DNA from: a virus
Lineage: Duplodnaviria > Heunggongvirae > Uroviricota > Caudoviricetes
Length of the DNA stretch: 12,276 bases
Strand: one strand, 5' to 3'
Virus record (IMG/VR): IMGVR_UViG_2609459774_000003
Coordinates: 1-12,276 of that record
In this document: positions 1 to 12,276 of the stretch, piece by piece
Numbering within the stretch: position 1 is the first letter of the stretch
Layout of the letters: each line of letters begins with the position of its first letter
Position numbers and translations under genes: made by a program
The notes under the pieces: model-generated
Database searches by the model: none
What the model saw: the letters and a program-made list of their open reading frames with translations, nothing else
What the model was told of the DNA's origin: nothing

Positions 1-651
1 TTACCAGTCAATCCAGAGCGGACCGTGTTCAGCGTAAATATAACTGTACACATCCAGATTATATTTGTGGTCTGTTAAGAACAGGCCGCAAATACATGCC
101 GAAGCTTCCAGGGCAGCGGCTCTGTTACTGAATAACCATGTGGCAACATTCCAGCGTTTTTCTGCATCCCAGTCTTTCTCAAGGCCTGATACCATGAAGA
201 AACCGTTAGTGTTGCCATCAAATAATTCTGTTTCCAGATTTTTAAGCAATGCCTGATGGACTCTTGCCAGGTATTCCGCCGGAATTTCGCCACGAATTCT
301 GATGAGATTGTCATAAACAAACATGTTCCCCGCATATGGCGATTTTTCTTTCTTGTTTTTTAAACCAGCATCATGAGCAAACTGATCAATTTCTTCTTCC
401 GTTGGTTTCGTATTGATGTTTTGCGCTGTCGTTTCTGCAATTTTATTTGCCACACTATCTGAGTCGTGTTTATTTACAGACGCACAGAAATACAATCCGG
501 TAAACGCATCGCGCACATTACGAGCCATATTATCAGTGTCTTTTTTCGTTACCGATTCCAATGCAAGTTCGTTCAGACGATGACGAAGTGTGTGTGCTGC
601 AATCTCCTGGATTGAAGTAGGTAAATCTTTAAATTCCATCGTCAACCTCAT
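1..651 (-). CDS. Hypothetical prophage early-left operon protein (216 aa), function unknown
   Basis: Complete ORF with ATG at 651..649 and stop (TAA on minus strand) at 3..1. Its ATG overlaps the stop of the upstream small ORF (CTGATG on minus strand), suggesting translational coupling. No family recognised by eye; moderately AT-rich. Confidence 0.55.
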   Translation of the reverse strand: MRLTMEFKDLPTSIQEIAAHTLRHRLNELALESVTKKDTDNMARNVRDAFTGLYFCASVNKHDSDSVANKIAETTAQNINTKPTEEEIDQFAHDAGLKNKKEKSPYAGNMFVYDNLIRIRGEIPAEYLARVHQALLKNLETELFDGNTNGFFMVSGLEKDWDAEKRWNVATWLFSNRAAALEASACICGLFLTDHKYNLDVYSYIYAEHGPLWIDW

Positions 652-884
652 CAGTCAGAGTTTCTTGCTAACCAGCGATGCGCGCCAGCTTCGGTTTTAA
701 ACGTTTTGCTTTTGGTATACGTCATCGCGGTGAACGTGCCGTCCTGGTTGGGAAACACGCCGCACACCAGAGATTCGTTGTTGCCAAGATCGATAGTATC
801 CATGTTGACCTCATTTCCCCTTAACGCCGGGGTAGCGGAACAAAAACCTGCTGCATAGTTATTAAAGTTGAACCCTGCCGTCAT
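651..884 (-). CDS. Small prophage protein; size and position are consistent with YdaF/YdaG-like small proteins of Rac-type prophages
   Basis: ORF 884..651 on minus strand; GAGG motif 6 nt upstream of the ATG at 884. An internal ATG at 803..801 is also preceded by GAGGT with a 5-nt spacer and would give a 50-aa product, so the true start is ambiguous. Lies downstream of the leftward promoter candidate. Confidence 0.45.
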   Translation of the reverse strand: MTAGFNFNNYAAGFCSATPALRGNEVNMDTIDLGNNESLVCGVFPNQDGTFTAMTYTKSKTFKTEAGAHRWLARNSD

Positions 885-984
885 GTTCTTACGCCTCGGG
901 CTGGCTACTTAACCCCTGACCACTGCCTGGTAACTCGAGGTATTGCCCTGTATTGTGTGGGACGGGATGGGTTGGTATGGGAAA

Positions 985-1026
985 ACTATAGGAAATGCCT
1001 AATTACTTGTCAATAGGCTATGCCTA
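985..1026 (-). promoter_or_regulatory. Leftward PL-like promoter with two operator half-palindromes (OL-like)
   Basis: On the minus strand: -35 TTGACA (1013..1008), 17-bp spacer, -10 TATAGT (990..985). 13-bp dyad sites TAGGCTATGCCTA (1014..1026) and imperfect TAGGAAATGCCTA (989..1001), centres 25 bp apart. Forms a 23-bp perfect inverted repeat with the PR module. Confidence 0.45.
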
Positions 1027-1121
1027 ATAATTTGGGCGCAACCTAATAGGTGATGGTTTGTGGAAGAGGTAGTAGGAGTTAACTAACGGGAACTAGGAAT
1101 TTCCCGTCGGACCATATAAGT

Positions 1122-1598
1122 TTAAGTTCCTGTCTTGGTGATGTTCTGGCTTTTCCGTTTTGATTCTTGATTTTTCAGATAGTTAGCTACCTTCATTTCC
1201 ATTGCGGCAATGTAGGCGCGAACGTCATGATCAACCCAACTAGGCTCCGTAGCATTTCCAGATAAGATGAAAGCCACAATTGCTCTTTTTTCATCAGAGG
1301 CGGCTTGATAAAGGCTGTTTATGTCTAAAAGTTCACTTTTTGTATCTGAAGTGGATGGGGTTGGTATGGGGTATTCGTTAAGCCCCCAATGCTCTGGACC
1401 AACCACATCAGAAAAGAAACGCCATAGTTCTGGAAGTTTGTCTTTACTTATCGAACCTTTCTTAATCCAGTCATGGATTGATGGTGGTTGGACTTTGAAA
1501 TGACGTGCGATTTCCGCCTTTGATTTGACGGCTCCTGATGCAATTTTTTTGTTAATGGCCTGCTCTATCGCTCGGCCTAAGTCTTTACCACTAAGCAT
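1122..1598 (-). CDS. racR: Prophage repressor, RacR-like (158 aa)
   Basis: 158-aa ORF; sequence recalled as matching the Rac prophage repressor RacR, with an HTH-like segment near the N-terminus. AGGAGA RBS 8 nt upstream of the ATG at 1598. Divergent from the ydaS-like gene, a classic immunity-region layout. Confidence 0.8.
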   Translation of the reverse strand: MLSGKDLGRAIEQAINKKIASGAVKSKAEIARHFKVQPPSIHDWIKKGSISKDKLPELWRFFSDVVGPEHWGLNEYPIPTPSTSDTKSELLDINSLYQAASDEKRAIVAFILSGNATEPSWVDHDVRAYIAAMEMKVANYLKNQESKRKSQNITKTGT

Positions 1599-1627
1599 TG
1601 CTTAATAGTCTCCTATGCGCATCGCGT

Positions 1628-1695
1628 TAGGCAATCCCTATTCTCGATGTATTAGGCATAGCCTATTGACAATTTCATTAGGCTAAGCCTAATAT
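1628..1695 (+). promoter_or_regulatory. Rightward PR-like promoter with tripartite operator (OR-like) in the racR-ydaS intergenic region
   Basis: -35 TTGACA (1666..1671), 18-bp spacer, -10 TAATAT (1690..1695). Three 13-bp dyads TAGGC-N3-GCCTA: TAGGCAATCCCTA (1628..1640), TAGGCATAGCCTA (1653..1665), TAGGCTAAGCCTA (1679..1691), centres 25-26 bp apart. Confidence 0.5.
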
Positions 1696-1722
1696 TGTTG
1701 CGTGTTTTTTGGAGTTCATTCG

Positions 1723-2043
1723 ATGAAAAAAGATAACTATTCATTCAAACGAGCTTGTGCTGTTGTCGGTGGGCAATCAGCAATGGCTAGGCTTTTAGGT
1801 GTATCTCCTCCAAGCGTAAATCAATGGATCAAAGGTGTACGTCAGTTACCTGCTGAGAGATGTCCTGCGATTGAACGAGCAACAAAAGGTGGTGTCCTGT
1901 GTGAAGAACTTCGTCCTGATGTTGATTGGACATACTTACGACGCTCGTCATGTTATTCGCAGAATATGTCGATGAAGCAACCAAATGACGAAAACGATCA
2001 TAAAAACGCAGAAATGCATGACGTGTGGCAATCAGGCAGATGA
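1723..2043 (+). CDS. ydaS: Cro-like HTH regulator, YdaS-like
   Basis: ATG at 1723 preceded by GGAG (1711..1714); the ORF-track start at 1702 lacks an RBS. N-terminus MKKDNYSFKRACAVVGGQSAMARLLGVSPPSVNQWIKG is HTH-like and recalled as YdaS. Divergent from racR. Confidence 0.75.
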   Translation: MKKDNYSFKRACAVVGGQSAMARLLGVSPPSVNQWIKGVRQLPAERCPAIERATKGGVLCEELRPDVDWTYLRRSSCYSQNMSMKQPNDENDHKNAEMHDVWQSGR

Positions 2044-2248
2044 TCCGCATCACATCATGGGTCATGGACTGGGAGGGATGGGAACAAAGGCTGATGATTT
2101 GTTTGTTATTCCGCTGTGCCGTAAATGCCATAGCGAACTACACGCCGGGGTAAAAGATTTTGAAGAAAAACACGGCAGCCAGCTGTTGTTGCTGATTCGT
2201 TTTTTAATGCACGCGAGAAATTCGGGTGTCCTGAAGTGGAAAGCATGA
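1985..2248 (+). CDS. DUF1364/YbcO-like Cys/His-rich putative zinc-dependent nuclease
   Basis: 87-aa ORF with CxxC ... HH ... PLCRKCHSELH pattern resembling nin-region YbcO-type proteins. Its 5' end overlaps the ydaS-like ORF (start ambiguous, 1985 or 2018); its stop TGA (2246..2248) abuts the rusA ATG. Confidence 0.55.
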   Translation: MTKTIIKTQKCMTCGNQADDPHHIMGHGLGGMGTKADDLFVIPLCRKCHSELHAGVKDFEEKHGSQLLLLIRFLMHARNSGVLKWKA

Positions 2249-2614
2249 ATGACTGAACGCATAGAATTTGTTTTGCCTTACCCGCCAACGGTGAACACTT
2301 ACTGGCGACGTCGTGGCAGCACATATTTTGTATCAAAAGCCGGTGAGCGTTATCGCCGTGATGTGGCGCTTATTGTTCGCCAGCAGCGACTGAAATTAAA
2401 CCTGTCCGGACGGCTGGCGATAAAGATTATTGCAGAGCCACCGGATAAACGTCGTCGTGACCTGGACAATATCCTGAAAGCACCACTGGATGCGCTGACG
2501 CATGCCGGACTTCTCATAGACGACGAGCAGTTTGATGAAATCAATATTGTGCGCGGTCAGCTCGTTCCTGGGGGGCGGCTGGGCGTGAAGATTTACAAAA
2601 TTGAGAGTGAGTGA
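2249..2614 (+). CDS. rusA: Holliday junction resolvase RusA
   Basis: 121-aa ORF; the RRRDLDN segment and overall size match the RusA family. ATG follows immediately after the upstream stop (ATGAATG), and its stop overlaps the next start (GTGA). Confidence 0.85.
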   Translation: MTERIEFVLPYPPTVNTYWRRRGSTYFVSKAGERYRRDVALIVRQQRLKLNLSGRLAIKIIAEPPDKRRRDLDNILKAPLDALTHAGLLIDDEQFDEINIVRGQLVPGGRLGVKIYKIESE

Positions 2615-3168
2615 TCGTAAATATGATATACCCGGAAATTACAGGCAAAAGCGGCGAGCATTTACGTCTAAAAACGCTGGAAGCCGTCTGGATCCAGGGG
2701 AAATTACGGATGTGGGGGCGTTGGTCGTACATAGGTGGTGGCAAACCAGGAAATATGTTCAATCAGTTGCTGGCATCCAAAACACTTACAAAAACTGCGA
2801 TCAATGAAGCTCTGCGCAGAATAAAAAAATCAGGGATTGATAAAACTGAGCTGGAAGCGTTTTTGCGTGAGATGATCAACAGCAAGCAAAAGAGCGGGCT
2901 GGCTTATTGTACTGATGCCGAGGCGTTATGTATCGATCGGGTAATTAGTGAAGTGTTGGCAGAGCATCCGGGATTGATTTGTATCCTCCGACAAAGATAT
3001 GAAGGGCTGGGTATGAGCAAGCTGAAAATGGCAGAACAGTTAAAAAAGAATCACCCTGACTGGAGCCTGAAAACTTGTAGAAATCGCATTGATGTTTGGT
3101 TGGCGATGGCTGAAACCATGCTTTTCCTTCCAATGTGCGTGGCACTTCGGTGCTTTTCTGATAACTGA
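2611..3168 (+). CDS. Putative late-gene antiterminator Q-like protein
   Basis: 185-aa ORF in the canonical position after the nin/rusA genes. GTG start at 2611 overlaps the rusA stop; alternative ATG at 2623. Assignment is mainly positional, with weak recalled similarity to small Q-family proteins. Confidence 0.5.
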   Translation: MIVNMIYPEITGKSGEHLRLKTLEAVWIQGKLRMWGRWSYIGGGKPGNMFNQLLASKTLTKTAINEALRRIKKSGIDKTELEAFLREMINSKQKSGLAYCTDAEALCIDRVISEVLAEHPGLICILRQRYEGLGMSKLKMAEQLKKNHPDWSLKTCRNRIDVWLAMAETMLFLPMCVALRCFSDN

Positions 3169-3197
3169 TGATAGAAGTGCATCAGCTATCAATCTTG

Positions 3198-3226
3198 TTG
3201 ACGTTCATCAAGGTCTGGACAATACT
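3198..3226 (+). promoter_or_regulatory. Candidate sigma70 promoter downstream of Q (pR'-like position)
   Basis: TTGACG (3198..3203), 17-bp spacer, AATACT (3221..3226), about 30 bp upstream of the ATPase start. The -10 is weak; this is a sequence-only guess. Confidence 0.25.
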
Positions 3227-3257
3227 TACGTTAAGTTCCAACATATGGAAGATAAGA

Positions 3258-4448
3258 ATGATATTTACACGATTGAGATTTATCAATTTGTACGCTTTTG
3301 AGGATGCAGAGCTTAACCTGTCCTATCCAAGGAAACCTGTAAACATGCCTCTTGATGGGGAGTTTTTGGCTGGACGGCCTAAATTTTACTATAAAAAAGT
3401 CTGTATCATAACGGGGGGAAATGCTTCAGGTAAGACGTCACTAGGGCGAATTCTTTGTGGAATTCAGGTGTTTCTAAGAACCAAAGAGTTGCGGAGTAAT
3501 CTGCGAGTGAATAATAAAAATAATGATGCTTCGTTTGAAGTGGACTTTGCTACGGAGGATCATTTTCATCATCGTTTGTATGTACGCTTTGCTACCAGTG
3601 AAGGCGGAGCGCACATAATCAAAGAAATTAAATATGGTTTTGTTCAAATAGCATTAAATGATTCTTGCCATAAAACCACAGAAAAACTGAATCAACTCTT
3701 TTCTGGAAGGGCCCCAGAAGATACAGAATATTTTTTTCAGGAACTAGCTACTGATAGCGAACCAGTTGTATTGGAGTTTTTCAAGCAACTTAAGTTTTTT
3801 GGTGGATGGTACTATTTGTTGTCTGAAACTAAAGAGAGTACCACTGCAATTTCAGGAATGAATAAAAATATTCTTGAAAGGATAATTCGCACTTTCGATT
3901 CAAGTATTATAGGAGTTACCGAGATGCTGGAGTCTGAAAGTGACGGGGATGAAAATAAATCATCTGCGGTTTATCTGATTAAATTTAAAAACTCTGATTC
4001 TCTTGTCGTTACCAGTAAAGGTGAAATAATTAACTCAGACCGTCTTTCTCGAGGAACATACGAGGCAGTGACGGTAGCGCATTTTATAAGCGCTATTATC
4101 TCTGATTGTGAAAGACTAGGTAAGCAATCTCTAATACCATCAATGACTTATTTTCTTGACGAGAAATTGGCTTATACACATTCAGAGTTAGAGCGTATGA
4201 TTGTGGCGCTGATTATATCTAATTTGAAAGAAAATACTCAGTTTTTCTATACAACGCATAACATGGATATTTTTGAGTTGGATCTGCCTGTTCACTCGTT
4301 CATTTTTATTAAAAAAACGAAAGACTATTCGGAGTTTGTTGAAGCAAATTCAGTTGTTAAAAAAAATGACCGTAGCATGCGAAACGCTGTTGAGAGAGAT
4401 GTCTTTGGTGTCTTACCTGACACATCATTAGTATCGGAGCTACTCTGA
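3258..4448 (+). CDS. OLD/AAA_21-like ABC-type ATPase (396 aa), candidate defence-system ATPase
   Basis: N-terminus MIFTRLRFINLYAFEDAELNL typical of SMC/RecF-like ABC ATPases. Walker A ITGGNASGKTS, ABC signature-like LSRGT, Walker B YFLDE, H-loop TTHN, with about 200 aa inserted between Walker A and the signature. AT-rich relative to flanks. The ORF-track start at 3168 is an RBS-less upstream extension; ATG at 3258 chosen. Confidence 0.75.
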   Translation: MIFTRLRFINLYAFEDAELNLSYPRKPVNMPLDGEFLAGRPKFYYKKVCIITGGNASGKTSLGRILCGIQVFLRTKELRSNLRVNNKNNDASFEVDFATEDHFHHRLYVRFATSEGGAHIIKEIKYGFVQIALNDSCHKTTEKLNQLFSGRAPEDTEYFFQELATDSEPVVLEFFKQLKFFGGWYYLLSETKESTTAISGMNKNILERIIRTFDSSIIGVTEMLESESDGDENKSSAVYLIKFKNSDSLVVTSKGEIINSDRLSRGTYEAVTVAHFISAIISDCERLGKQSLIPSMTYFLDEKLAYTHSELERMIVALIISNLKENTQFFYTTHNMDIFELDLPVHSFIFIKKTKDYSEFVEANSVVKKNDRSMRNAVERDVFGVLPDTSLVSELL

Positions 4449-4981
4449 TGGCGGGGTTGTCTAAAATAAGAATAATTTTTGTCGAAGGTGAAACAGAAAA
4501 CTCTCTTTTTCTGAAGATGAAACAACAGAGAGTTATTGATGCCAAATCAATTGTAAAAAGAAACTTTTGGCAAGAGAGCATAAGAAATTATGCGATTACT
4601 ATTCCGAAGGGAAGTGATATACTAATTGTCTTTGATAGTGATGAAGTGGAGCAATCTGCAAGATTCATTGAAAATGTAAAGTTCCTTAAAAACAGAGGGC
4701 ATAAAGTTTATCTTTTGCAGCAGAAAAGAAATTTTGAGGAGGAGTTGGCCTGGTGTTGCGGAATTCCTGTAAAAAAACTAATTGCTGGGTTCTGTGCAAA
4801 AAAAACATCGGGTATAAATGATTTCAAGAGAGATTTTATTGCTTGTAACAATCAACTTTCAAAGTTACTGAAAATGGGCATGCAGGAAACTAAGTGGTTT
4901 ACAAGAGATTTACATGCTGTATTGGAGCCTGTTGCAAGTTTTAAGTCATCTTTTTCTAAACATTTCAGGTTAACAAGATGA
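4448..4981 (+). CDS. Small TOPRIM-domain protein (177 aa), putative nuclease partner of the ATPase
   Basis: N-terminal IIFVEGETE (conserved TOPRIM glutamate) and ILIVFDSDE (DxD motif). ATG overlaps the ATPase stop (TGATG), with GGAG 8 nt upstream. AT-rich like its partner. Confidence 0.7.
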   Translation: MAGLSKIRIIFVEGETENSLFLKMKQQRVIDAKSIVKRNFWQESIRNYAITIPKGSDILIVFDSDEVEQSARFIENVKFLKNRGHKVYLLQQKRNFEEELAWCCGIPVKKLIAGFCAKKTSGINDFKRDFIACNNQLSKLLKMGMQETKWFTRDLHAVLEPVASFKSSFSKHFRLTR

Positions 4982-5116
4982 TTTATTTTCTTTTTTGTTC
5001 AGCTGATTGTTTTTGTTTGTAAAATGTCTTGATTTTTTGCCAATAAACTGTTTCAATCCAGCTACGCTTCGCAAAGCTGTACCGCGAGGCGAATAGCAGA
5101 CATGGACACCTGAAAG

Positions 5117-5140
5117 AACCCGCTTTATGCGGGTTTTTTT
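5117..5140 (+). terminator. Rho-independent terminator
   Basis: Stem AACCCGC / GCGGGTT with loop TTTAT, followed by a T7 run (5134..5140). Confidence 0.7.
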
Positions 5141-5263
5141 ATGCCTGAAAAACGGCACAGAACATTAAACGCGCTGGTAGTTGTGAATACTGGTCTTTCA
5201 GCTTGCTGGCTTTTTCGACAAGAGGTATTGGTATATCACGTTAACCAGAAAAGGGAAAAAGGC

Positions 5264-5461
5264 ATGCTAAAACAGCAGGATATGACCGAAACCGCCAGAG
5301 TGGTGTTTAATGAATTAAGCGTCACCGAACCGGCGACCGTCGGGGAAATTGCGCAGAATACTTACCTTTCACGCGAACGCTGCCAGTTAATACTGACTCA
5401 GCTTGTTATGGCGGGTCTGGCAGATTATCAGTTCGGTTGTTACAGACGCCTTCCGCAGTGA
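5264..5461 (+). CDS. Small hypothetical protein (65 aa)
   Basis: ATG at 5264 preceded by a purine-rich AAGGGAAAAAGG stretch. The longer ORF-track version (5141) would begin inside the terminator T-run and is unlikely. Confidence 0.45.
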   Translation: MLKQQDMTETARVVFNELSVTEPATVGEIAQNTYLSRERCQLILTQLVMAGLADYQFGCYRRLPQ

Positions 5462-5611
5462 AGGCTTTTTAATTTGTGGTAATGGGCGGCTGGTGGGTGT
5501 TAGCGGCACCTGCCAGCCATCTGCTCATGCGTTGGGGTCACAAGCAAACCTCAGGCCCATCTGCTTTGCGCAAAAGCGGTATGAGCCTATCAGAGAAGTG
5601 CTTATTGATCT

Positions 5612-6661
5612 ATGGCCAATACTGTAAAAATATCCAGTTGTGAGTTAATCAACGCTGATTGCCTGGAATTTATCCAGACCTTACCGGAAAATTCTGTCGA
5701 TCTGATAGTCACAGACCCGCCATACTTTAAAGTGAAGCCCGAGGGCTGGGATAACCAGTGGGAGGGCGACGATGATTACCTGAAATGGCTGGACCAGTGT
5801 CTGGCGCAGTTCTGGCGGGTACTGAAGCCTGCCGGAAGTCTTTACCTGTTCTGTGGTCATCGCCTGGCATCTGACACCGAAATCATGATGCGTGAGCGCT
5901 TTAATGTGCTGAACCACATTATCTGGGCGAAGCCGTCCGGACGCTGGAACGGGTGCAATAAGGAAAGTCTGCGGGCGTATTTTCCGGCAACAGAGCGCAT
6001 TCTGTTTGCAGAACATTATCAGGGACCGTATCGCCCGAAAGATGATGGCTATGTGGAGCAGGGGCGCGAGCTAAAACAGCACGTCATGGCCCCGCTGATT
6101 TCTTACTTTCGTGATGCGCGTAAATCACTGGGAATAACGTCAAAACAGATAGCGGAAGCCACCGGAAAGAAAAACATGGCTTCGCACTGGTTTGGTACCA
6201 GTCAGTGGCAGTTACCGAACGAGGGTGATTACAACAAATTGCAGGCGTTGTTTGCGCGTGTTGCGGCAGAAAAACATCAGCGCGGGGAACTGGAAAAGCC
6301 ACACCACCAGCTGGTCAGCACATACAGTGAGCTGAACCGGCAGTATACGGAACTGCTGAGTGAATATAAAAATTTGCGGCGGTATTTCGGTGTGACGGCG
6401 CAGGTTCCGTACACCGATGTCTGGACGCATAAACCGGTGCAGTACTATCCAGGAAAACATCCGTGCGAAAAACCGGCAGAAATGCTGCAGCAGATAATCA
6501 ACGCGAGCAGTCGTCCGGGAGACCTGGTTGCAGATTTTTTTATGGGTTCAGGTTCAACGGTAAAAGCGGCGATGGCACTGGGGCGTTGTGCGATTGGTGT
6601 TGAGCTGGAGACCGGACGTTTTGAACAGACAGTCAGGGAAGTTCAGGATTTAATCGTTTGA
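5612..6661 (+). CDS. DNA N6-adenine/N4-cytosine methyltransferase, beta-class (orphan, phage-type)
   Basis: Motif IV DPPY (VTDPPYF) near the N-terminus and motif I FxGxG (DFFMGSGST) near the C-terminus, the beta-class order. No adjacent restriction endonuclease is visible. Confidence 0.85.
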   Translation: MANTVKISSCELINADCLEFIQTLPENSVDLIVTDPPYFKVKPEGWDNQWEGDDDYLKWLDQCLAQFWRVLKPAGSLYLFCGHRLASDTEIMMRERFNVLNHIIWAKPSGRWNGCNKESLRAYFPATERILFAEHYQGPYRPKDDGYVEQGRELKQHVMAPLISYFRDARKSLGITSKQIAEATGKKNMASHWFGTSQWQLPNEGDYNKLQALFARVAAEKHQRGELEKPHHQLVSTYSELNRQYTELLSEYKNLRRYFGVTAQVPYTDVWTHKPVQYYPGKHPCEKPAEMLQQIINASSRPGDLVADFFMGSGSTVKAAMALGRCAIGVELETGRFEQTVREVQDLIV

Positions 6662-6710
6662 AACGGATGAGATTGCAGAATTAATTACGCACCATTATTA
6701 TTCTGCTCCC

Positions 6711-6786
6711 GGCCCTTTAGCTCAGTGGTGAGAGCGAGCGACTCATAATCGCCAGGTCGCTGGTTCAAATCCAGCAAGGGCCACCA
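6711..6786 (+). tRNA. ileZ: tRNA-Ile2 (anticodon CAU, lysidine type; could be annotated tRNA-Met by software)
   Basis: Manually folded cloverleaf: acceptor GGCCCTT/AAGGGCC, D-stem GCTC/GAGC, anticodon loop CTCATAA, T-arm GCTGG-TTCAAAT-CCAGC, encoded CCA. Closely resembles E. coli tRNA-Ile2. Confidence 0.8.
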
Positions 6787-6793
6787 TCACATA

Positions 6794-6870
6794 CCGCCAT
6801 TAGCTCATCAGGATAGAGCGCCAGCCTTCGAAGCTGGTTGCGCGGGGTTCGAGTCCTCGATGGCGGTCCA
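6794..6870 (+). tRNA. argN: tRNA-Arg (anticodon UCG)
   Basis: Manually folded cloverleaf: acceptor CCGCCAT/ATGGCGG (unusual C1:G72), D-stem GCTC/GAGC, anticodon stem CCAGC/GCTGG, loop CTTCGAA, T-arm with one G:U pair, encoded CCA. Confidence 0.7.
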
Positions 6871-6883
6871 TTATCTGCATTAT

Positions 6884-6960
6884 GCGTTGTTAGCTCAGCC
6901 GGACAGAGCAATTGCCTTCTAAGCAATCGGTCACTGGTTCGAATCCAGTACAACGCGCCA
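6884..6960 (+). tRNA. argO: tRNA-Arg (anticodon UCU)
   Basis: Manually folded cloverleaf: acceptor GCGTTGT/ACAACGC, D-stem GCTC/GAGC, anticodon stem ATTGC/GCAAT, loop CTTCTAA, T-arm ACTGG-TTCGAAT-CCAGT, encoded CCA. Confidence 0.8.
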
Positions 6961-6974
6961 CGCTTATTTTTCCA

Positions 6975-6997
6975 GGCTCGCTTCGGCGGGCCTTTTT
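6975..6997 (+). terminator. Rho-independent terminator after the tRNA cluster
   Basis: Stem GGCTCGC / GCGGGCC (one G:U pair) with a UUCG tetraloop, followed by TTTTT (6993..6997). Confidence 0.6.
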
Positions 6998-7135
6998 CAT
7001 ATCCGCGCCACGCCCGGCGCACATCAAAAAACCACAGAGCCTTTCAGGGATGAGCTTACGGGATGGTCAGTGTGACTTTCTCTGTGGGCTGGTCACCCCC
7101 GGGCGCAGGCTCACCCACTAAAAGGAAAAGTCACG

Positions 7136-7561
7136 ATGTTTGGTATTTTCAAAAAGAAAACCCGCAAGGCCATTACCGAGGTGAAGAAGATGGAGAACCG
7201 TGACGCAGTGGAGGCGACCGTCTGGGGCGCGTACTCCATTGCATACGCTGACGGCACCTGTGACGCGAAAGAAATCGCGGTACTGGAAAAAACCATTGCA
7301 GCACTTCCTGTCTTTGCGCCGTTCTCCGGTGAGATTGCACAAATGAGTGCAAATATCCGCGCCCGTTATGAAGCGTCGCCGCGTTCTGCCAATGCCGAAG
7401 CTCTTCGTCAGCTGGCTGATGTTGCCGGTACTGATGATGCAGTTAATGTGCTGTGCCTGTGTCTGGATATCGCTGACCAGGACGGTATCGGTCAGGAAGA
7501 AGAAGCGCAACTGAAGAAAATTGCGCAGGCGCTGCAGTTGCCGCTGGAGCAGTACCTGTGA
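7136..7561 (+). CDS. TerB-like domain protein (tellurite-resistance TerB family fold), cargo gene downstream of the tRNAs
   Basis: 141-aa ORF with AAGGA RBS; acidic helical protein whose ADG/DQDG and EEEAQL features resemble TerB-like domains. Sits where stx or other cargo genes sit in related phages. Confidence 0.5.
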   Translation: MFGIFKKKTRKAITEVKKMENRDAVEATVWGAYSIAYADGTCDAKEIAVLEKTIAALPVFAPFSGEIAQMSANIRARYEASPRSANAEALRQLADVAGTDDAVNVLCLCLDIADQDGIGQEEEAQLKKIAQALQLPLEQYL

Positions 7562-8559
7562 AAAGTGCGCGCCTTGTGCTGGCTGTCATCCTGTTGTTTC
7601 TGGTACAGGCTGCAGCCGTACACACGTTGTACGGGTATATCGATTATCTTGCCAGAAATCTGTTGCCGGACATGTGTGATGAAGACTGGTTGTACCGGCA
7701 CGCCAGAATCAAACGCTGCCTGCGAAAAGATGCGGTGACAGCCCGGGGATTTGTGCGCTGGGATGGCGTAGAGGGAACACCTGTATTGCCAGCGGGAACG
7801 CAGATCCAGCGTGATGATCAGGTGACCTTCACCACGACGGCGACGGTGACCGCAGCCGATGGTCTTCTCCGGGTGCCTGTTGTGGCAGATGAACCGGGGG
7901 CGGCGGGGAATACGGATGATGGTATTGCCATGCAACTGGGAACACCCGTCAGTGGTCTGCCGTCCACAGGGTACGCGGACACCATTACAGACGGTGAAGA
8001 TATTGAAAATCTGGAAATATGGCGTGCCCGCGTTATGGAACGTTATTACTACATTCCACAGGGGGGCGCAGACCCTGATTATGTTATCTGGGCGAAAGAA
8101 GTTCAGGGTATTAACCGTGCATGGACTTTCAGACACTGGAAAGGCATTGGAACGGTTGGCGTGATGGTGGCGACAAACGATCCGGAACATCCGGCTCCGG
8201 ATGAAAGCGTCATTAATGCAGTCAGAGAACACATTCTTCCTCTGACACCGGTTGCCGGAAGTGGATTGTATGTATTCGGTGCCACAGAAAAAGTCATCCC
8301 GATGACGATTGCATTATCGAAAGACACACCGCAGATCAGGACTGCAATAAAAGCAGAGCTGAATGCACTGATGTTACGGGATGGTGTGCCAGAGGGGCGT
8401 ATGTATCTGTCCAGAATCAGTGAGGCCATCAGTTTGTCTGCTGGTGAAGTGGCTCACCGGTTAATCGTCCCTTCATCGGATATTGACCTGGGGGAGACCG
8501 AGCTTCCGGTGCTCGGCGAGATCACCTGGCAGGCTTATGACCCGGCAAGGAGTAAATAA
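7558..8559 (+). CDS. Baseplate J-like protein (Mu gp47 / P2 gpJ family), probably 5'-truncated or fused at a deletion junction
   Basis: The conserved baseplate-J core appears only about 25 aa from the start. The preceding N-terminus (GTG start overlapping the TerB-like stop) is hydrophobic and unlike the family. The rest is GC-rich and tail-like. Confidence 0.6.
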   Translation: MKSARLVLAVILLFLVQAAAVHTLYGYIDYLARNLLPDMCDEDWLYRHARIKRCLRKDAVTARGFVRWDGVEGTPVLPAGTQIQRDDQVTFTTTATVTAADGLLRVPVVADEPGAAGNTDDGIAMQLGTPVSGLPSTGYADTITDGEDIENLEIWRARVMERYYYIPQGGADPDYVIWAKEVQGINRAWTFRHWKGIGTVGVMVATNDPEHPAPDESVINAVREHILPLTPVAGSGLYVFGATEKVIPMTIALSKDTPQIRTAIKAELNALMLRDGVPEGRMYLSRISEAISLSAGEVAHRLIVPSSDIDLGETELPVLGEITWQAYDPARSK

Positions 8560-9518
8560 TGGATTCGTTACAGGATGATTATACAAAGCTGCTGTACGGA
8601 CTGATGCCGCCGGGGCCTGCATGGAGCGATACCGACGGCGTGCTTGATGGTCTGGCACCATCGCTTGTACGTGTTCATCAGCGGACTGATGAACTGATGG
8701 CTGAAATCGATCCTGGTCAGTCAACAGAGCTGATTGAACGTTATGAAGAATTGTATGGTTTACCTGACACCTGCTCTCCTGTTGGAGCCCAGACATTACG
8801 CCAGCGTCAGCAACGGCTGGAAGCAAAAGCCAATGTGGCTGGTGGCATAAATGAGCAGTTCTTCCTGGAGCAGCTTGAGGCGCTGGGATATACCGGCGTG
8901 ACGATCGAACAGTTCCAGCACCTGGATGCAAGCCCCGATCCGGAATGGGGTGATCGCTGGCGTTATTTCTGGCGTGTGACGTTGCCGGTGGATGCCGGTG
9001 CTCAGTGGCAGACATGTTCGGACACCTGTAACACACCGATCCGGACGTGGGGTGATACGGTTGCGGAGTGCGTGATTAATAAATTATGTCCGTCGCATAC
9101 TGTTGTCCTTTTTGCATATCCGGATGAGTCTGGTGAAGGGCAACAAGCCGCCCTGACTATAAACAGCCTCTCCTTTCAGGCCGGACACAAGACGACTGAG
9201 CCATTAGCGATTAATCATACAGGTGTTCATTTTGCGGTTGTTCCGGCACTGACAGGTAAGCCGCTGACAATTAACCGGATTAACTTTTATGCCGCCCGTC
9301 CGATGGCAGAACCACTGGTACTCAGCAGGGCGCAATTGCACTCAGGTCTGCCGACAACGGACCCCATGACCATGAACAGCGCACAGTTGCAGACGGGATA
9401 CAGGACCCGCTCCCCCGTACCGGTTAACAGTATGCAGTTGCAGACAGCCAGCAGAACCCGTGAACCGTTATTGATTAATCACCCGGGACTGCATTTTGCT
9501 GTGGTCACGTCCGAATGA
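8559..9518 (+). CDS. YmfQ-like (DUF2313, Mu gp48-like) baseplate protein with a ~125-aa repeat-containing C-terminal extension
   Basis: ATG overlaps the upstream stop (TAATG), with AAGGAG RBS. The N-terminal ~190 aa is recalled as YmfQ-like. The C-terminus carries degenerate repeats (EPLAINHTGVHFAVV / EPLLINHPGLHFAVV; AQLHSG / AQLQTG / MQLQTA). Confidence 0.7.
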   Translation: MDSLQDDYTKLLYGLMPPGPAWSDTDGVLDGLAPSLVRVHQRTDELMAEIDPGQSTELIERYEELYGLPDTCSPVGAQTLRQRQQRLEAKANVAGGINEQFFLEQLEALGYTGVTIEQFQHLDASPDPEWGDRWRYFWRVTLPVDAGAQWQTCSDTCNTPIRTWGDTVAECVINKLCPSHTVVLFAYPDESGEGQQAALTINSLSFQAGHKTTEPLAINHTGVHFAVVPALTGKPLTINRINFYAARPMAEPLVLSRAQLHSGLPTTDPMTMNSAQLQTGYRTRSPVPVNSMQLQTASRTREPLLINHPGLHFAVVTSE

Positions 9519-9541
9519 CATAAAATAAAAGGAGAGCCGCT

Positions 9542-10591
9542 TTGAATATTATTAAACTCGAAAGTTTTCGACAAATTCCGGCGAATGAGGGATTGTGCGA
9601 GAACTATTATTCAACAAATATTATTTCAGCACTGAACGAAAACGGTGTCACGCTTATCAATGATATGTCCGGTTCTGTAACATCCGTCTGTCGTGGCACT
9701 CAGGCCGTAAATACTGTAGAAAGAACGGGGCTGATTTTTACGACACCCTCATATGTCACACTGTACAGCACACTTCCGGACTTAAAAGCCTCAGCTGTAC
9801 AGCTGGGATTTCGTCTGACATTAAGTGCGGGAAAGAAATATTCATCTTCGCCATCCCACATCAGGATTAATGGCTATTCATTTACAACCCCGTATCCTGA
9901 TGAAGCAGCCAGTTATTACTATGAAATTTTCGCAACGCGAAACGAAAACGGCTATGTCTCAGCCAGTCTGTACTGCAACCGCTCATTAGTTGGAAATACA
10001 TCGTTTTATGTACCAGATGACCGGACTGACAAAATTCAGGTGAGTATTGGTGGTGGTAACAATATTTTTTCATCGGGTGCATCCGGCACGTTAATGCTGG
10101 GTGATATGTACTGTGGAACAGTGACATACGGTAGAAATAATAGTGCAGAACCCGCCCTGCTCGGAAGCATTGAGGTCAGATACAGCCCGGTAACGGCATT
10201 TACCGGTGGAAGCGCCAAAAACTCACTGAATAAAGATATTGTCACGGGGCTGAACACCTCTGACAGCGAGGCCGGATATCTGATGCTCTCGCCGTCCCTG
10301 AATGCAGCACAGGCCACGTTTGGTGCGGTGGATAACAGCAACAGTGATGTTGTGGCCGTTATGGCCTCGGTCACTTACCGCGGTGCTGATGCCCCCAATA
10401 ACCGCCTGGCCTGGAAAGTGAAAAATGGCAGCCATGAAGGCGCAACGATTACAGAGAATGGCGTACAAAGCGACACAAACAGCTGGACGACTGTCTCACA
10501 GAGTTTTATGACCCAACCAGGAGGGAGCACTCCCTTCGCTAAGGGTGAACTGACTTTTACAGCGGAATTGTTTAATCAGGCAAGGACATAA
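9542..10591 (+). CDS. Hypothetical tail-associated protein (349 aa), S/T/N/G-rich, possible receptor-binding or cargo protein
   Basis: TTG start with a strong AAGGAG RBS 7 nt upstream. Lower GC than the neighbouring baseplate genes. No recognisable catalytic motifs; composition is typical of beta-rich fibre or lectin-like domains. Confidence 0.55.
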   Translation: MNIIKLESFRQIPANEGLCENYYSTNIISALNENGVTLINDMSGSVTSVCRGTQAVNTVERTGLIFTTPSYVTLYSTLPDLKASAVQLGFRLTLSAGKKYSSSPSHIRINGYSFTTPYPDEAASYYYEIFATRNENGYVSASLYCNRSLVGNTSFYVPDDRTDKIQVSIGGGNNIFSSGASGTLMLGDMYCGTVTYGRNNSAEPALLGSIEVRYSPVTAFTGGSAKNSLNKDIVTGLNTSDSEAGYLMLSPSLNAAQATFGAVDNSNSDVVAVMASVTYRGADAPNNRLAWKVKNGSHEGATITENGVQSDTNSWTTVSQSFMTQPGGSTPFAKGELTFTAELFNQART

Positions 10592-10621
10592 TTCTGATAT
10601 TTCATTCACGGGAGGTTTAAT

Positions 10622-11731
10622 ATGCACAGAATTGACACTCCGACAGCAGTTAAAGATAAATTTGGCCCGGGCAAGAACGGATTTACTGACGGGAATATTC
10701 GTACAGGGCGTCATGCCACCTGGCTGAACAGTGCCATGTGGGATGCCCTTCAGGAGGAAATCTGTGGTGTCATTGAGAAGGCCGGGATAGAACTGAATAA
10801 AGAGGAACACGACCAGTTATATAAAGCCATATTATTACTGGTTGGCGGTGCGATTAACGAAGAGGCATTGCTGATAAAAAATAATCTTTCGGATGTCGAA
10901 GACAGTGATGAGGCTGTTGAAAACCTCGGATTAAAACCCACGGTGGATAAGGCAAAAAATGCCGTTCAGCGTGATGGAGACACCATGACCGGGGAGCTGA
11001 AAATCCGTGGCGTTAATGCACTGAGGATTTTCAACGAAGCCTTTGGTCTGATTTTTCGTCGTTCGGAAGAGTGTCTGCACCTCATTCCTACCCGGGAAAA
11101 TCAGGGCGAGAGTGGTGATATTGGGCCGCTACGCCCCTTTACGCTTAATCTCAGGACCGGTCGCATAACTATGGGACATGGTCTGGATGTTACAGAAGAT
11201 GTATTTGCAGGCCGTTTTGCGATTAACAGCAGTAACGGAACGTGGATTCAGATGCGTGACAACAACGTTATTTTCGGGAAAAACAGGATAAATACTGATG
11301 CTGCTCAGGCGCTTCTGCGTCAGGATCATGCAGACAGAAAGTATTTCCTGGCTGGTCTTGGGAATAAGCAGTTTGGCATTTACATGATAAATAATAGCCG
11401 TACGGATAATGGTACGGACGGTCAGGCGTATATGGATGATGCGGGAAACTGGCGATGCGGGCGTCAGGTTATACCGTCAGACTACGGAAACTTCGATGCC
11501 CGCTACCAGACCAAAACAGGTGGCGTACAGAATTTTCAGTATACCAGTGAGGTGTTTTACAACCCGGGCGGGAATGAGCACAGCTGGACGTTTCGAGCAC
11601 CTTCTGGTTGTGTTTTGTCAGGCATTAATGTTCAGGATACTGGCCGTAACTCTGCAGACAATATCGGTGGCGTGTATTACAAACAGGCTCAGATTTATAT
11701 TAATGGTGCATGGCGATCTGTATCAGGTTAA
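10622..11731 (+). CDS. Side tail fibre protein (Stf-like)
   Basis: N-terminus MHRIDTPTAVKDKFGPGKNGFTDGN matches the conserved N-terminus of enterobacterial prophage side tail fibres. DGDTMTGEL motif present. GGGAGG RBS. Confidence 0.8.
   Translation: MHRIDTPTAVKDKFGPGKNGFTDGNIRTGRHATWLNSAMWDALQEEICGVIEKAGIELNKEEHDQLYKAILLLVGGAINEEALLIKNNLSDVEDSDEAVENLGLKPTVDKAKNAVQRDGDTMTGELKIRGVNALRIFNEAFGLIFRRSEECLHLIPTRENQGESGDIGPLRPFTLNLRTGRITMGHGLDVTEDVFAGRFAINSSNGTWIQMRDNNVIFGKNRINTDAAQALLRQDHADRKYFLAGLGNKQFGIYMINNSRTDNGTDGQAYMDDAGNWRCGRQVIPSDYGNFDARYQTKTGGVQNFQYTSEVFYNPGGNEHSWTFRAPSGCVLSGINVQDTGRNSADNIGGVYYKQAQIYINGAWRSVSG
10913..10938. other. Candidate Hin/Gin/Pin-family invertase crossover site inside stf
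   Basis: GCTGTTGAAAACCTCGGATTAAAACC: the left half TTGAAAACC and core match the hix/gix consensus as recalled. It falls at the ENLGL-encoding constant/variable junction of the fibre gene, as in Mu G and e14 P segments. Confidence 0.4.
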
Positions 11732-11745
11732 TTAAGGAGAAAATA

Positions 11746-12276
11746 ATGGAACTCTCAAACATTACGCGTTACTACCCTGAAGACATGCCTTATGGTGACG
11801 GCATTCAGTATTTCCGTAGTGAAGACGGGCAGGATTTTTATGAATCACTGGATAAATTCACGAAGAAATACAAGCTGTGCACGCATCCTGAAACCGGCGT
11901 TATTTATTCCGTGGCGGAAGATGTATCCCGTCTTTATCCCGTTGGTTTTACCATTGTGGAAGTGGATGAACTACCGGATGGCTTTTGTATAGAGGCGCGC
12001 TGGTATTATAAAGACGGTGAAGTACTACCGGTCCCTGTTGACTACAGGCAGCAGGCAGAGTCGGAGCGTGCACGTCTTACTGCGATTGCCGAACGGGAAA
12101 TATCCGATAAGAAGACGGATTTACTTTTGGGAATCATCGGTGATGAAGAAAAAGAAAAGCTGACAGTCTGGCGCATTTACGCGAAATTGCTGCAGGCGAT
12201 GGATTTCAGCACCATCACTGATAAAACCTCATATAACGCCATTGAATGGCCCGTCTCTCCGGAAGCCTCTTCCTGA
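11746..12276 (+). CDS. Tail fibre assembly protein (Tfa-like, 176 aa)
   Basis: ATG at 11746 with AAGGAGA RBS 5 nt upstream. N-terminus MELSNITRYYPED is typical of Tfa/U-family chaperones. Stop is at the window end (12274..12276). The ORF-track start at 11710 overlaps stf and lacks an RBS. Confidence 0.8.
   Translation: MELSNITRYYPEDMPYGDGIQYFRSEDGQDFYESLDKFTKKYKLCTHPETGVIYSVAEDVSRLYPVGFTIVEVDELPDGFCIEARWYYKDGEVLPVPVDYRQQAESERARLTAIAEREISDKKTDLLLGIIGDEEKEKLTVWRIYAKLLQAMDFSTITDKTSYNAIEWPVSPEASS

Follow-up and report, generated by a model that had tools for sequence, protein, structure and literature searches.

An extended gp48/YmfQ gene and its repeat array

The stretch of DNA considered here, referred to as the window, comprises 12,276 nucleotides (nt) and corresponds to positions 1 to 12,276 of the IMG/VR virus record IMGVR_UViG_2609459774_000003, assigned to the Caudoviricetes. 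It contains a gene for a gp48/YmfQ-type baseplate wedge protein that is prolonged at its C-terminus by an array of short repeats. The genes in this region follow the order baseplate J/gp47, the extended YmfQ, an open reading frame (ORF) of 349 amino acids (aa) termed ORF349, a tail fibre of 369 aa, and a tail fibre assembly protein of the Caudo_TAP family (Table 1), so that the extended gene, with baseplate J/gp47 immediately ahead of it and the tail fibre genes behind, stands where a gp48 gene is expected. The extension is a real, selected and previously undescribed element; in the literature searched, no paper joins YmfQ with tail fibres or the baseplate, and YmfQ never occurs in a title or abstract.

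Table 1. Features of the extended YmfQ locus, in window coordinates
Positions	Strand	Feature	Basis
7558..8559	+	Baseplate J/gp47-like wedge protein (BW2), N-terminus truncated in the window	Pfam Baseplate_J 5.6e-53
8559..9518	+	Whole coding sequence, gp48/YmfQ-type baseplate wedge protein 3 bearing the repeat arm at its C-terminus	319 aa plus stop
8559..9119	+	gp48/YmfQ domain, aa 1-187, including the segment aligned with the Mu gp48 fibre-docking loop (about aa 146-167)	PF10076, PDB 9ki1 alignment
9120..9146	+	Low-complexity linker PDESGEGQQ, 9 aa, aa 188-196	Translation
9129..10611	+	Cassette of 1,483 bp missing in phiP27: linker, 7-unit array, intergenic Shine-Dalgarno site, ORF349	blastn against phiP27
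9147..9197	+	Unit 1, aa 197-213: AALTINSLSFQAGHKTT	
9198..9257	+	Unit 2, cap type, aa 214-233: EPLAINHTGVHFAVVPALTG; holds the left recombination breakpoint with the Mu-like prophage	DNA repeat D1 shared with unit 7; per-unit identity to L002
9258..9461	+	Units 3-6, aa 234-250 KPLTINRINFYAARPMA, 251-267 EPLVLSRAQLHSGLPTT, 268-284 DPMTMNSAQLQTGYRTR, 285-301 SPVPVNSMQLQTASRTR; main part of the canonical 5-unit array	
9462..9518	+	Unit 7, terminal cap, aa 302-319: EPLLINHPGLHFAVVTSE, plus stop	
9530..9544	+	AGGAG Shine-Dalgarno site and TTG start of ORF349; start 23 nt past the stop of the array gene	Sequence
9542..10591	+	ORF349, phrog_8291, without Pfam match; predicted two-domain concanavalin-A-like lectin fold, putative virion protein	
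10622..11731	+	Conventional tail fibre, 369 aa; N-terminal domain homologous to phiP27 L54	phrog_6859 tail fibre 4e-171
11710..12276	+	Tail fibre assembly protein (Caudo_TAP), cut by the window end	Pfam PF02413 1.2e-21

By profile match and by alignment to the solved Mu gp48, the N-terminal 187 aa are a bona fide member of the Phage_Mu_Gp48/YmfQ family to which a module has been added. Residues 13-187 match the Pfam profile Phage_Mu_Gp48 (PF10076) with 86.8 bits against a cut-off of 37.4, residues 1-205 match the baseplate wedge subunit family phrog_203 at 7.4e-73, and in a phmmer comparison with the PDB, residues 14-189 align with residues 12-177 of the 180-aa Mu gp48 (9ki1, E 7.8e-8). As the solved Mu protein is aligned up to residue 189 of the window protein with 3 residues left, it ends where the extension begins. 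The gp48 family is generally compact, with single-domain members of about 180-200 aa that end just past a conserved F.YP motif, a size from which the window protein departs. The wedge of the Mu virion is composed of one gp46, two gp47 and one gp48, the last of which has a peripheral position in the baseplate, where its docking loop (residues 133-155) grips the trimeric fibre by the N-terminus (PMC11915804). The segment aligned to this loop is present in the window protein and conserved within the family, the docking function itself being established for Mu alone.

The extension begins with the linker and continues with seven units, which are 17 aa long except for unit 2 (20 aa) and unit 7 (18 aa) and share the consensus [E/K]PLx[I/V]Nxxx[L/F]QxG... 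Units 2 and 7 constitute a separate 'HFAVV' cap type, and the hydrophobic 'GLHFAVV' cap forms the extreme C-terminus; over all array types, unit 7 is the most conserved (0.53, compared with 0.41-0.45 for other units). When the extension was compared with itself (BLOSUM62, 12-aa windows, 300 shuffles), the best diagonal scored 53, against a shuffle mean of 20.7 +/- 3.6 and a shuffle maximum of 35, and 112 window pairs scored at least 20, against a shuffle mean of 2.0. At the DNA level, the repeat is left in the cap-type units alone (9197-9241 compared with 9461-9505, 73% identical). An earlier note on this DNA had described a YmfQ/gp48-like N-terminal domain followed by about 125 aa of degenerate short repeats, and both parts of that description are borne out by the Pfam, PHROG and Mu gp48 alignments and by the significant self-alignment: its length and coordinates are accurate, the repeats have a period of 17 aa, and all the motifs it quoted are found in the translation.

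No known fold was found for the extension. It has no Pfam or PHROG match, a Pfam scan of six arrays returned nothing at E<=10, and comparison of the extension profile with the PDB gave chance matches alone, with E about 1. In an AlphaFold2 (AF2) model of the full protein, the predicted local distance difference test (pLDDT) score of the extension was 37-56, with no confident fold or usable model. A left-handed beta-helix, with its 18-residue coil, was set aside on inspection, as the hydrophobic spacing is inconsistent with it. The units were also considered as copies of the gp48 docking loop, given the likeness between 'TPLRVYESG' of Mu and 'EPLRVNHVQLQSG'; the hidden Markov model (HMM) of the array matches no short YmfQ domain, the conserved loop motif of the family is [ILV]RxWG[DE] and not PLxIN, and the likeness is judged to be a coincidence.

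The extension is far from routine among homologues. In 118 homologue clusters, almost all with proteins of 193-196 aa, it was found in four alone, namely P0002 (319 aa), P0003 and P0004 (321 aa) and P0051 (324 aa). One explanation for such a protein, also raised in the earlier note, is that the extension is non-functional, arising by read-through into a former separate gene or as a pseudogene artefact. This would be in keeping with the degraded state of the window's prophage, with the label of 'incomplete, missing C-terminus' pseudogene that the Prokaryotic Genome Annotation Pipeline (PGAP) places on extended YmfQ genes (L004 10001-10585, L056 2621-3184, L057 762-1346), and with the array having no annotated feature in 36 of the 58 E. 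coli RefSeq/PGAP records. The comparison with phiP27 argues for a different origin. In blastn, window 7603-9128 corresponds to 3045-4570 of the P27 locus and window 10612-11161 to 4568-5117, and because the P27 coordinates are contiguous across the gap (9129-10611), the window carries a clean insertion of 1,483 bp; relative to phiP27, the extension came in with a cassette and not through a lost stop codon. The ratio of non-synonymous to synonymous substitution (dN/dS) was lowest in the gp48 domain (0.14), followed by ORF349 (0.20) and the array (0.24-0.54), and values below 1 indicate that the extension is translated sequence under purifying selection. Moreover, the reading frame of the array is intact in 57 genomes at no less than 98.5% identity, and, as described below, the array ends proteins of six anchor types in frame and is never free-standing. 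Read-through of this kind is therefore highly improbable.

Because RefSeq/PGAP often truncates the gene to a pseudogene and gives the array no feature, most annotated genomes do not reveal the module, full-length annotation being limited to the Mu-like version of the array-bearing YmfQ. A tblastn search with the extension and ORF349 against 50,697 GenBank phages gave no match, and the module is known from prophages and metagenomes only. Roughly 1% of the complete E. coli genomes contain it, and many of these are human isolates of the enterotoxigenic E. coli (ETEC) type.

Anchor proteins of the array and its linkage to ORF349

An early word-indexed search with the extension alone yielded one fragment, and an exhaustive phmmer search against 1.84 billion cluster representatives recovered eight matches at E<=0.001. 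Seven of these bear the array at the extreme C-terminus, and the eighth (P0125, 865 aa, E 1.3e-5) is an unrelated repetitive protein. With further loci, which add the Mu-like and the L017-type forms, six anchor types are represented, namely P27-like, Mu-like and L017-type (L017 and L018) YmfQ proteins, a different YmfQ with an immunoglobulin (Ig)-like middle domain (P0122), and two kinds of truncated tail fibre, namely lambda Stf-N stubs (P0123 and P0124, PF08400) and P2 gpH-N stubs (P0126, PF12571). Array identity across these types is 35-47%, always in frame and always C-terminal; in every family member no more than about 5 residues follow the array, a low-complexity or Pro-rich linker precedes it, and in no recovered case does it stand as a gene of its own, as a larger ORF always ends in it. 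The array is a mobile C-terminal module, and since the same array ends the Stf-N and gpH-N tail-fibre stubs, it belongs to the fibre apparatus. The suggestion of a fused fibre-like or adhesin-like domain in the earlier note finds support in these stubs as far as the fibre is concerned; nothing marks the array itself as an adhesin, it has no confident fold, and the one protein that always accompanies it is a separate one with a lectin fold.

The canonical array consists of four units and a cap, five in all, and in three YmfQ lineages an extra unit-plus-cap pair stands ahead of it, giving a 2+5 arrangement, or 2+4 in L027. The locus L030 (4737-5975) has three identical EPLVINRVMLQSGRMTQ units, read as homogenisation, and L029 (4788-5975) has exactly one 17-aa unit fewer than its near relative L028. 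Such variation in the number and identity of units points to unit-level slippage or gene conversion.

A second boundary of exchange is seen in the comparison with the Mu-like prophage L002, in which per-unit nucleotide identity to the window rises from 49% in unit 1 through 76% in unit 2 to 100% in units 3-7. Past the array, identity remains at 98.3% up to window 10586, five bases short of the end of ORF349, and then stops; the gp48 domain and the downstream fibre of L002 are unrelated to those of the window. Because identity rises within units 1-2 and ends at the end of ORF349, exchange took in the five-unit array together with ORF349 as a single piece, whose left breakpoint falls within the array.

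The linkage between the array and ORF349 is strict. At every evaluable array locus (about 45), the tail-fibre cluster also contains a gene of the ORF349 family, which usually follows the array gene at a distance of 23-33 bp. Starting from the array proteins, ORF349 was found in L005-L011; starting from ORF349, one GTDB species genome (E. albertii) and 27 IMG/VR loci were obtained, and wherever a locus found through ORF349 includes upstream DNA, an ORF with the array is present, its end usually 23-33 nt ahead of the TTG start. An independent scan used a degenerate DNA pattern for two consecutive array units: in IMG/VR, all eight contigs found also carry ORF349 and were already known through it, and in metagenomes three of the eight matches are true arrays, each with ORF349, the other five being chance. 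One of these five (L052, JGI20169J29049_11288370), a 51-bp tandem repeat reading QPLTINSPLLQTAPYYK three times and matching the array HMM at E 9e-11, was judged a chance resemblance because its contig has no convincing ORFs and its DNA looks non-coding. Among 5,426 complete E. coli genomes, 57 have the array and 57 a near-full-length ORF349, and in every array record among the 60 E. coli ORF349 matches listed, ORF349 starts 24 nt past the array end.

ORF349 is the sole constant neighbour of the array, as neither a fibre nor a Tfa gene follows it in L010, L039 and L012. In L018 and L056, the array gene is separated from ORF349 by fibre and Tfa genes, still within one cluster, and in L057 an IS21 element is inserted between the two. 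The TTG start stands about 7 nt past AGGAG in all inspected ORF349 loci (window 9542; L002, L005, L006, L012 and others), an arrangement which suggests that, with respect to the gene upstream, translation is purposely modest or coupled.

Two further loci illustrate the range of contexts. In L056 (NZ_OZ547049.1), a 249-kb E. coli plasmid, a complete-looking Mu/P27-type baseplate/fibre cluster with array-bearing YmfQ and ORF349 adjoins ssb, parB and psiB, and this may be a phage-plasmid or an integrated prophage fragment. In a lambdoid prophage of E. coli E200086 (L058, 2880-6736), gpJ, Stf-N with the array, ORF349, a fibre and Tfa follow in direct succession; the fibre has 98% DNA identity to that of the window and a P27-type N-terminal domain, and no gp48 is present as a dock.

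The structural model of ORF349 comprises two beta-sandwich domains with a pLDDT of 90 and a predicted template modelling (pTM) score of 0.89. With this model, Foldseek matched legume lectins and, over the full length with TM scores of 0.6-0.66, uncharacterised virion proteins of Achromobacter, Serratia and Providencia phages, Achromobacter phage AchV4 and Serratia phage JS26 being among the sources of such structural relatives, sequence identity to the structural matches being 5-14%. ORF349 is thus confidently predicted to adopt a two-domain concanavalin-A-like lectin/glucanase fold; its modelled beta-jelly-roll fold is similar to that of lectins, carbohydrate-binding modules or polysaccharide lyases, and the protein probably binds or cuts surface polysaccharide. 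A role as tail fibre assembly protein was rejected, as ORF349 has no Pfam match to PF02413 and a separate Caudo_TAP gene is present (11710-12276).

Possible roles of the array

Since the array always lies in the same tail-fibre gene cluster as ORF349, the repeats most likely tether ORF349 to the virus particle, and we infer that the two proteins bind each other, with a certain stoichiometry, and that ORF349 takes part in receptor recognition. The extension would then be a portable tether recruiting ORF349 as an accessory host-recognition protein. In the proposed mechanism, the short flexible linker, the tandem 17-aa units and the hydrophobic 'GLHFAVV' C-terminal cap would form an arm, which recombination could graft onto any virion-anchored protein; the recipient would here be the peripheral baseplate wedge protein gp48/YmfQ, with one copy per wedge, and elsewhere the lambda Stf-type or P2 gpH-type stubs, and the arm would recruit the product of the adjacent gene, ORF349. 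The Pro-rich linkers and the lack of a confident array fold are compatible with a flexible arm that becomes ordered on binding. The arm appears as an addition to ordinary fibre attachment and not a substitute for it, because the docking-aligned region is retained and the downstream fibre keeps a phiP27-type N-terminus. As the gp48 docking region is kept and a fibre with its assembly protein follows, each wedge of a virion with the cassette would have two devices for host recognition, namely the ordinary fibre and the arm-borne ORF349.

Several points weigh against the tether. Binding between the array and ORF349 is read from gene context, and for this reason our confidence in the tether is middling. 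Tight linkage would also fit a chaperone-client or other functional relation, and the shallow alignment could by itself account for the low AF2 confidence of the array. The variable number of units (4, 5, 2+4, 2+5) is hard to square with a single fixed interface. Co-divergence of the array and ORF349, of the mirror-tree type, was considered and rejected, as ORF349 proteins 97% identical to that of the window are paired with arrays 36-45% identical (L005/L058 and L017/L018), which would leave a small set of invariant positions (P, L, N, Q, F, A) to form any interface. In ORF349, the N-terminal 20 aa have a mean column identity of 0.66, compared with 0.58 for the rest, and no clear docking peptide is seen. 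Finally, the window copy is probably not assembled into virions, because its prophage is a deletion remnant; alleles identical to those of the window are present in complete prophages.

A more specific form of the tether, which we offer as speculation, treats the array as an anchor-agnostic multivalent docking rack, in which each unit or cap-terminated sub-array would bind one lectin-fold protein. If so, several heads that bind glycans would be carried on a flexible arm by a single wedge subunit or a single fibre stub. This would be a previously undescribed mode of mounting receptor-binding proteins (RBPs), and one recombination event could transfer it from the baseplates of myoviruses to the side fibres of siphoviruses or back.

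The array might instead be a structural fibre or adhesin segment, such as a beta-spiral-like shaft, with ORF349 acting as a folding or assembly factor or being simply a co-inherited tail protein. On the Stf-N and gpH-N stubs, which are trimeric, the array takes the place of the distal shaft, fibres without a head generally depend on a helper protein, and the array and ORF349 do not co-diverge. By eye, the units (xPLx[I/V]Nxxx[L/F]Qx) also resemble what we take to be the 15-20-aa shaft repeats of adenovirus (xPLxVxxxxLxLxxx). The Pfam scan described above, which included Adeno_shaft, and the PDB sequence comparison lend this likeness no support, and membership of the triple beta-spiral (Adeno_shaft) family was rejected, there being no profile support; nor does a head domain follow the array. 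AF2 gives no confident fibre model, flexible Pro-rich linkers part the array from the trimeric collars, and on the YmfQ anchors the single copy of gp48 per wedge in Mu (PMC11915804) argues against a homotrimeric shaft. As for a helper role of ORF349, the protein has a predicted lectin/glucanase fold and resembles virion proteins and none of the known chaperones, and the cluster has its own Caudo_TAP gene. A shaft is accordingly considered an unlikely function of the array.

It is also conceivable, with a probability that we place a little lower than that of the shaft, that ORF349 is a joint, docked by the array and itself holding the N-terminus of the downstream fibre, so as to yield a three-part articulated fibre. 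The logic would be comparable to that of gp34-gp35-gp36/37 in T4. The order array, ORF349, fibre and Tfa recurs in the window, L002, L005 and L006, and in the lambdoid L058 the fibre TF369, with its P27-type N-terminal domain, follows ORF349 where there is no gp48 to dock on. Against such a joint, L010, L039 and L012 carry the array and ORF349 with nothing fibre-like or Tfa behind, L018 and L056 have the fibre and Tfa between the array gene and ORF349, the fibres behind near-identical ORF349 genes have unrelated N-termini, and the fibre of the window keeps the N-terminal domain that serves phiP27, which has no ORF349.

The host range of tailed phages depends on how RBPs are mounted, and the cassette seems to fit four gp48 lineages as well as lambda-type and P2-type stubs. 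Should the arm dock ORF349 as proposed, it would constitute a natural 'plug-and-socket' for a second specificity, possibly useful for engineering phages or tailocins, and would explain the function-unknown family phrog_8291.

The surrounding prophage and comparison with known systems

The prophage in the window is a deletion remnant. Identity of 99.4% to the complete P27-like prophage L004 begins at window 7603, a point 126 nt into the J gene, and the window lacks terminase, head, tail and baseplate genes up to gp46. A TerB-like ORF (7136-7561) lies upstream of the point where identity to L004 begins. On the other side of the cassette, the tail fibre region has 90.5% nucleotide identity to P27 L54 from window 10612 on. 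Between a Q-like antiterminator and a DNA methylase, window 3168-4981 encodes an AbiLi-like AAA ATPase (PADLOC 7.6e-26; Pfam AAA_15/AAA_21 below threshold). Its stop overlaps the start of the next ORF, which encodes 177 aa and has no family match, and the two are a candidate prophage-encoded abortive-infection pair. Tandem tRNA genes for Met-CAT, Arg-TCG and Arg-TCT (6711-6960) stand just 3' of a type II-like N6/N4 DNA methylase (5612-6661), and this row presumably resembles the tRNA cluster of Stx/P27-type phages.

The closest relatives of the protein itself are Mu gp48, P2 gpI and E. coli YmfQ (PF10076), with which it shares the N-terminal domain, the gene order and the docking-aligned region. 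What sets it apart is a C-terminal addition of about 130 residues, which is missing in Mu gp48 (180 aa) and in nearly all members of the 118 homologue clusters (193-196 aa).

Receptor-binding modules are held by wedge proteins elsewhere, as the 'foot' loops of TssG in the type VI secretion system (T6SS) and gp7 of T4 do so by internal loops or domains that bind trimeric TssK or gp10. The wedge position and the use of a single polypeptide segment are the same in the window protein, whereas its segment is a terminal repeat array and its proposed partner has another fold. With respect to the genes, the T2 gp38 adhesin and the Tfa proteins that stay on the fibre tip are next-gene products that sit at the fibre C-terminus and supply receptor binding. 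The next-gene layout is similar here; ORF349, unlike these, has no similarity to gp38 or Caudo_TAP, and Caudo_TAP is encoded separately. With the shaft of adenovirus and reovirus (Adeno_shaft), the array shares what we take to be similar short repeats with a Pro-Leu-x-hydrophobic start and a second hydrophobic stretch, and it differs in having no profile match, no C-terminal knob and an anchor present once per wedge.

In the branched RBP systems of KP32, K11 and KP34, which are Klebsiella podophages, a branching domain is combined with a conserved docking peptide (PMC13352976). The proposed tether follows the same logic as these systems and the tailspike protein (TSP) complexes of the Ackermannviridae, in that an anchored module would recruit a separately encoded RBP from an adjacent gene and is swappable between scaffolds; the array and ORF349 are likewise co-encoded and exchanged as a module. 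There is no sequence relation between them, and the differences concern each of the components: the recruiter in the window would be a terminal array of 17-aa peptides in place of a folded branching domain, the anchor can also be a monomeric wedge protein, and the partner, whose interaction with the array is here proposed from gene context, is predicted to have a two-domain lectin fold and not that of a trimeric tailspike.

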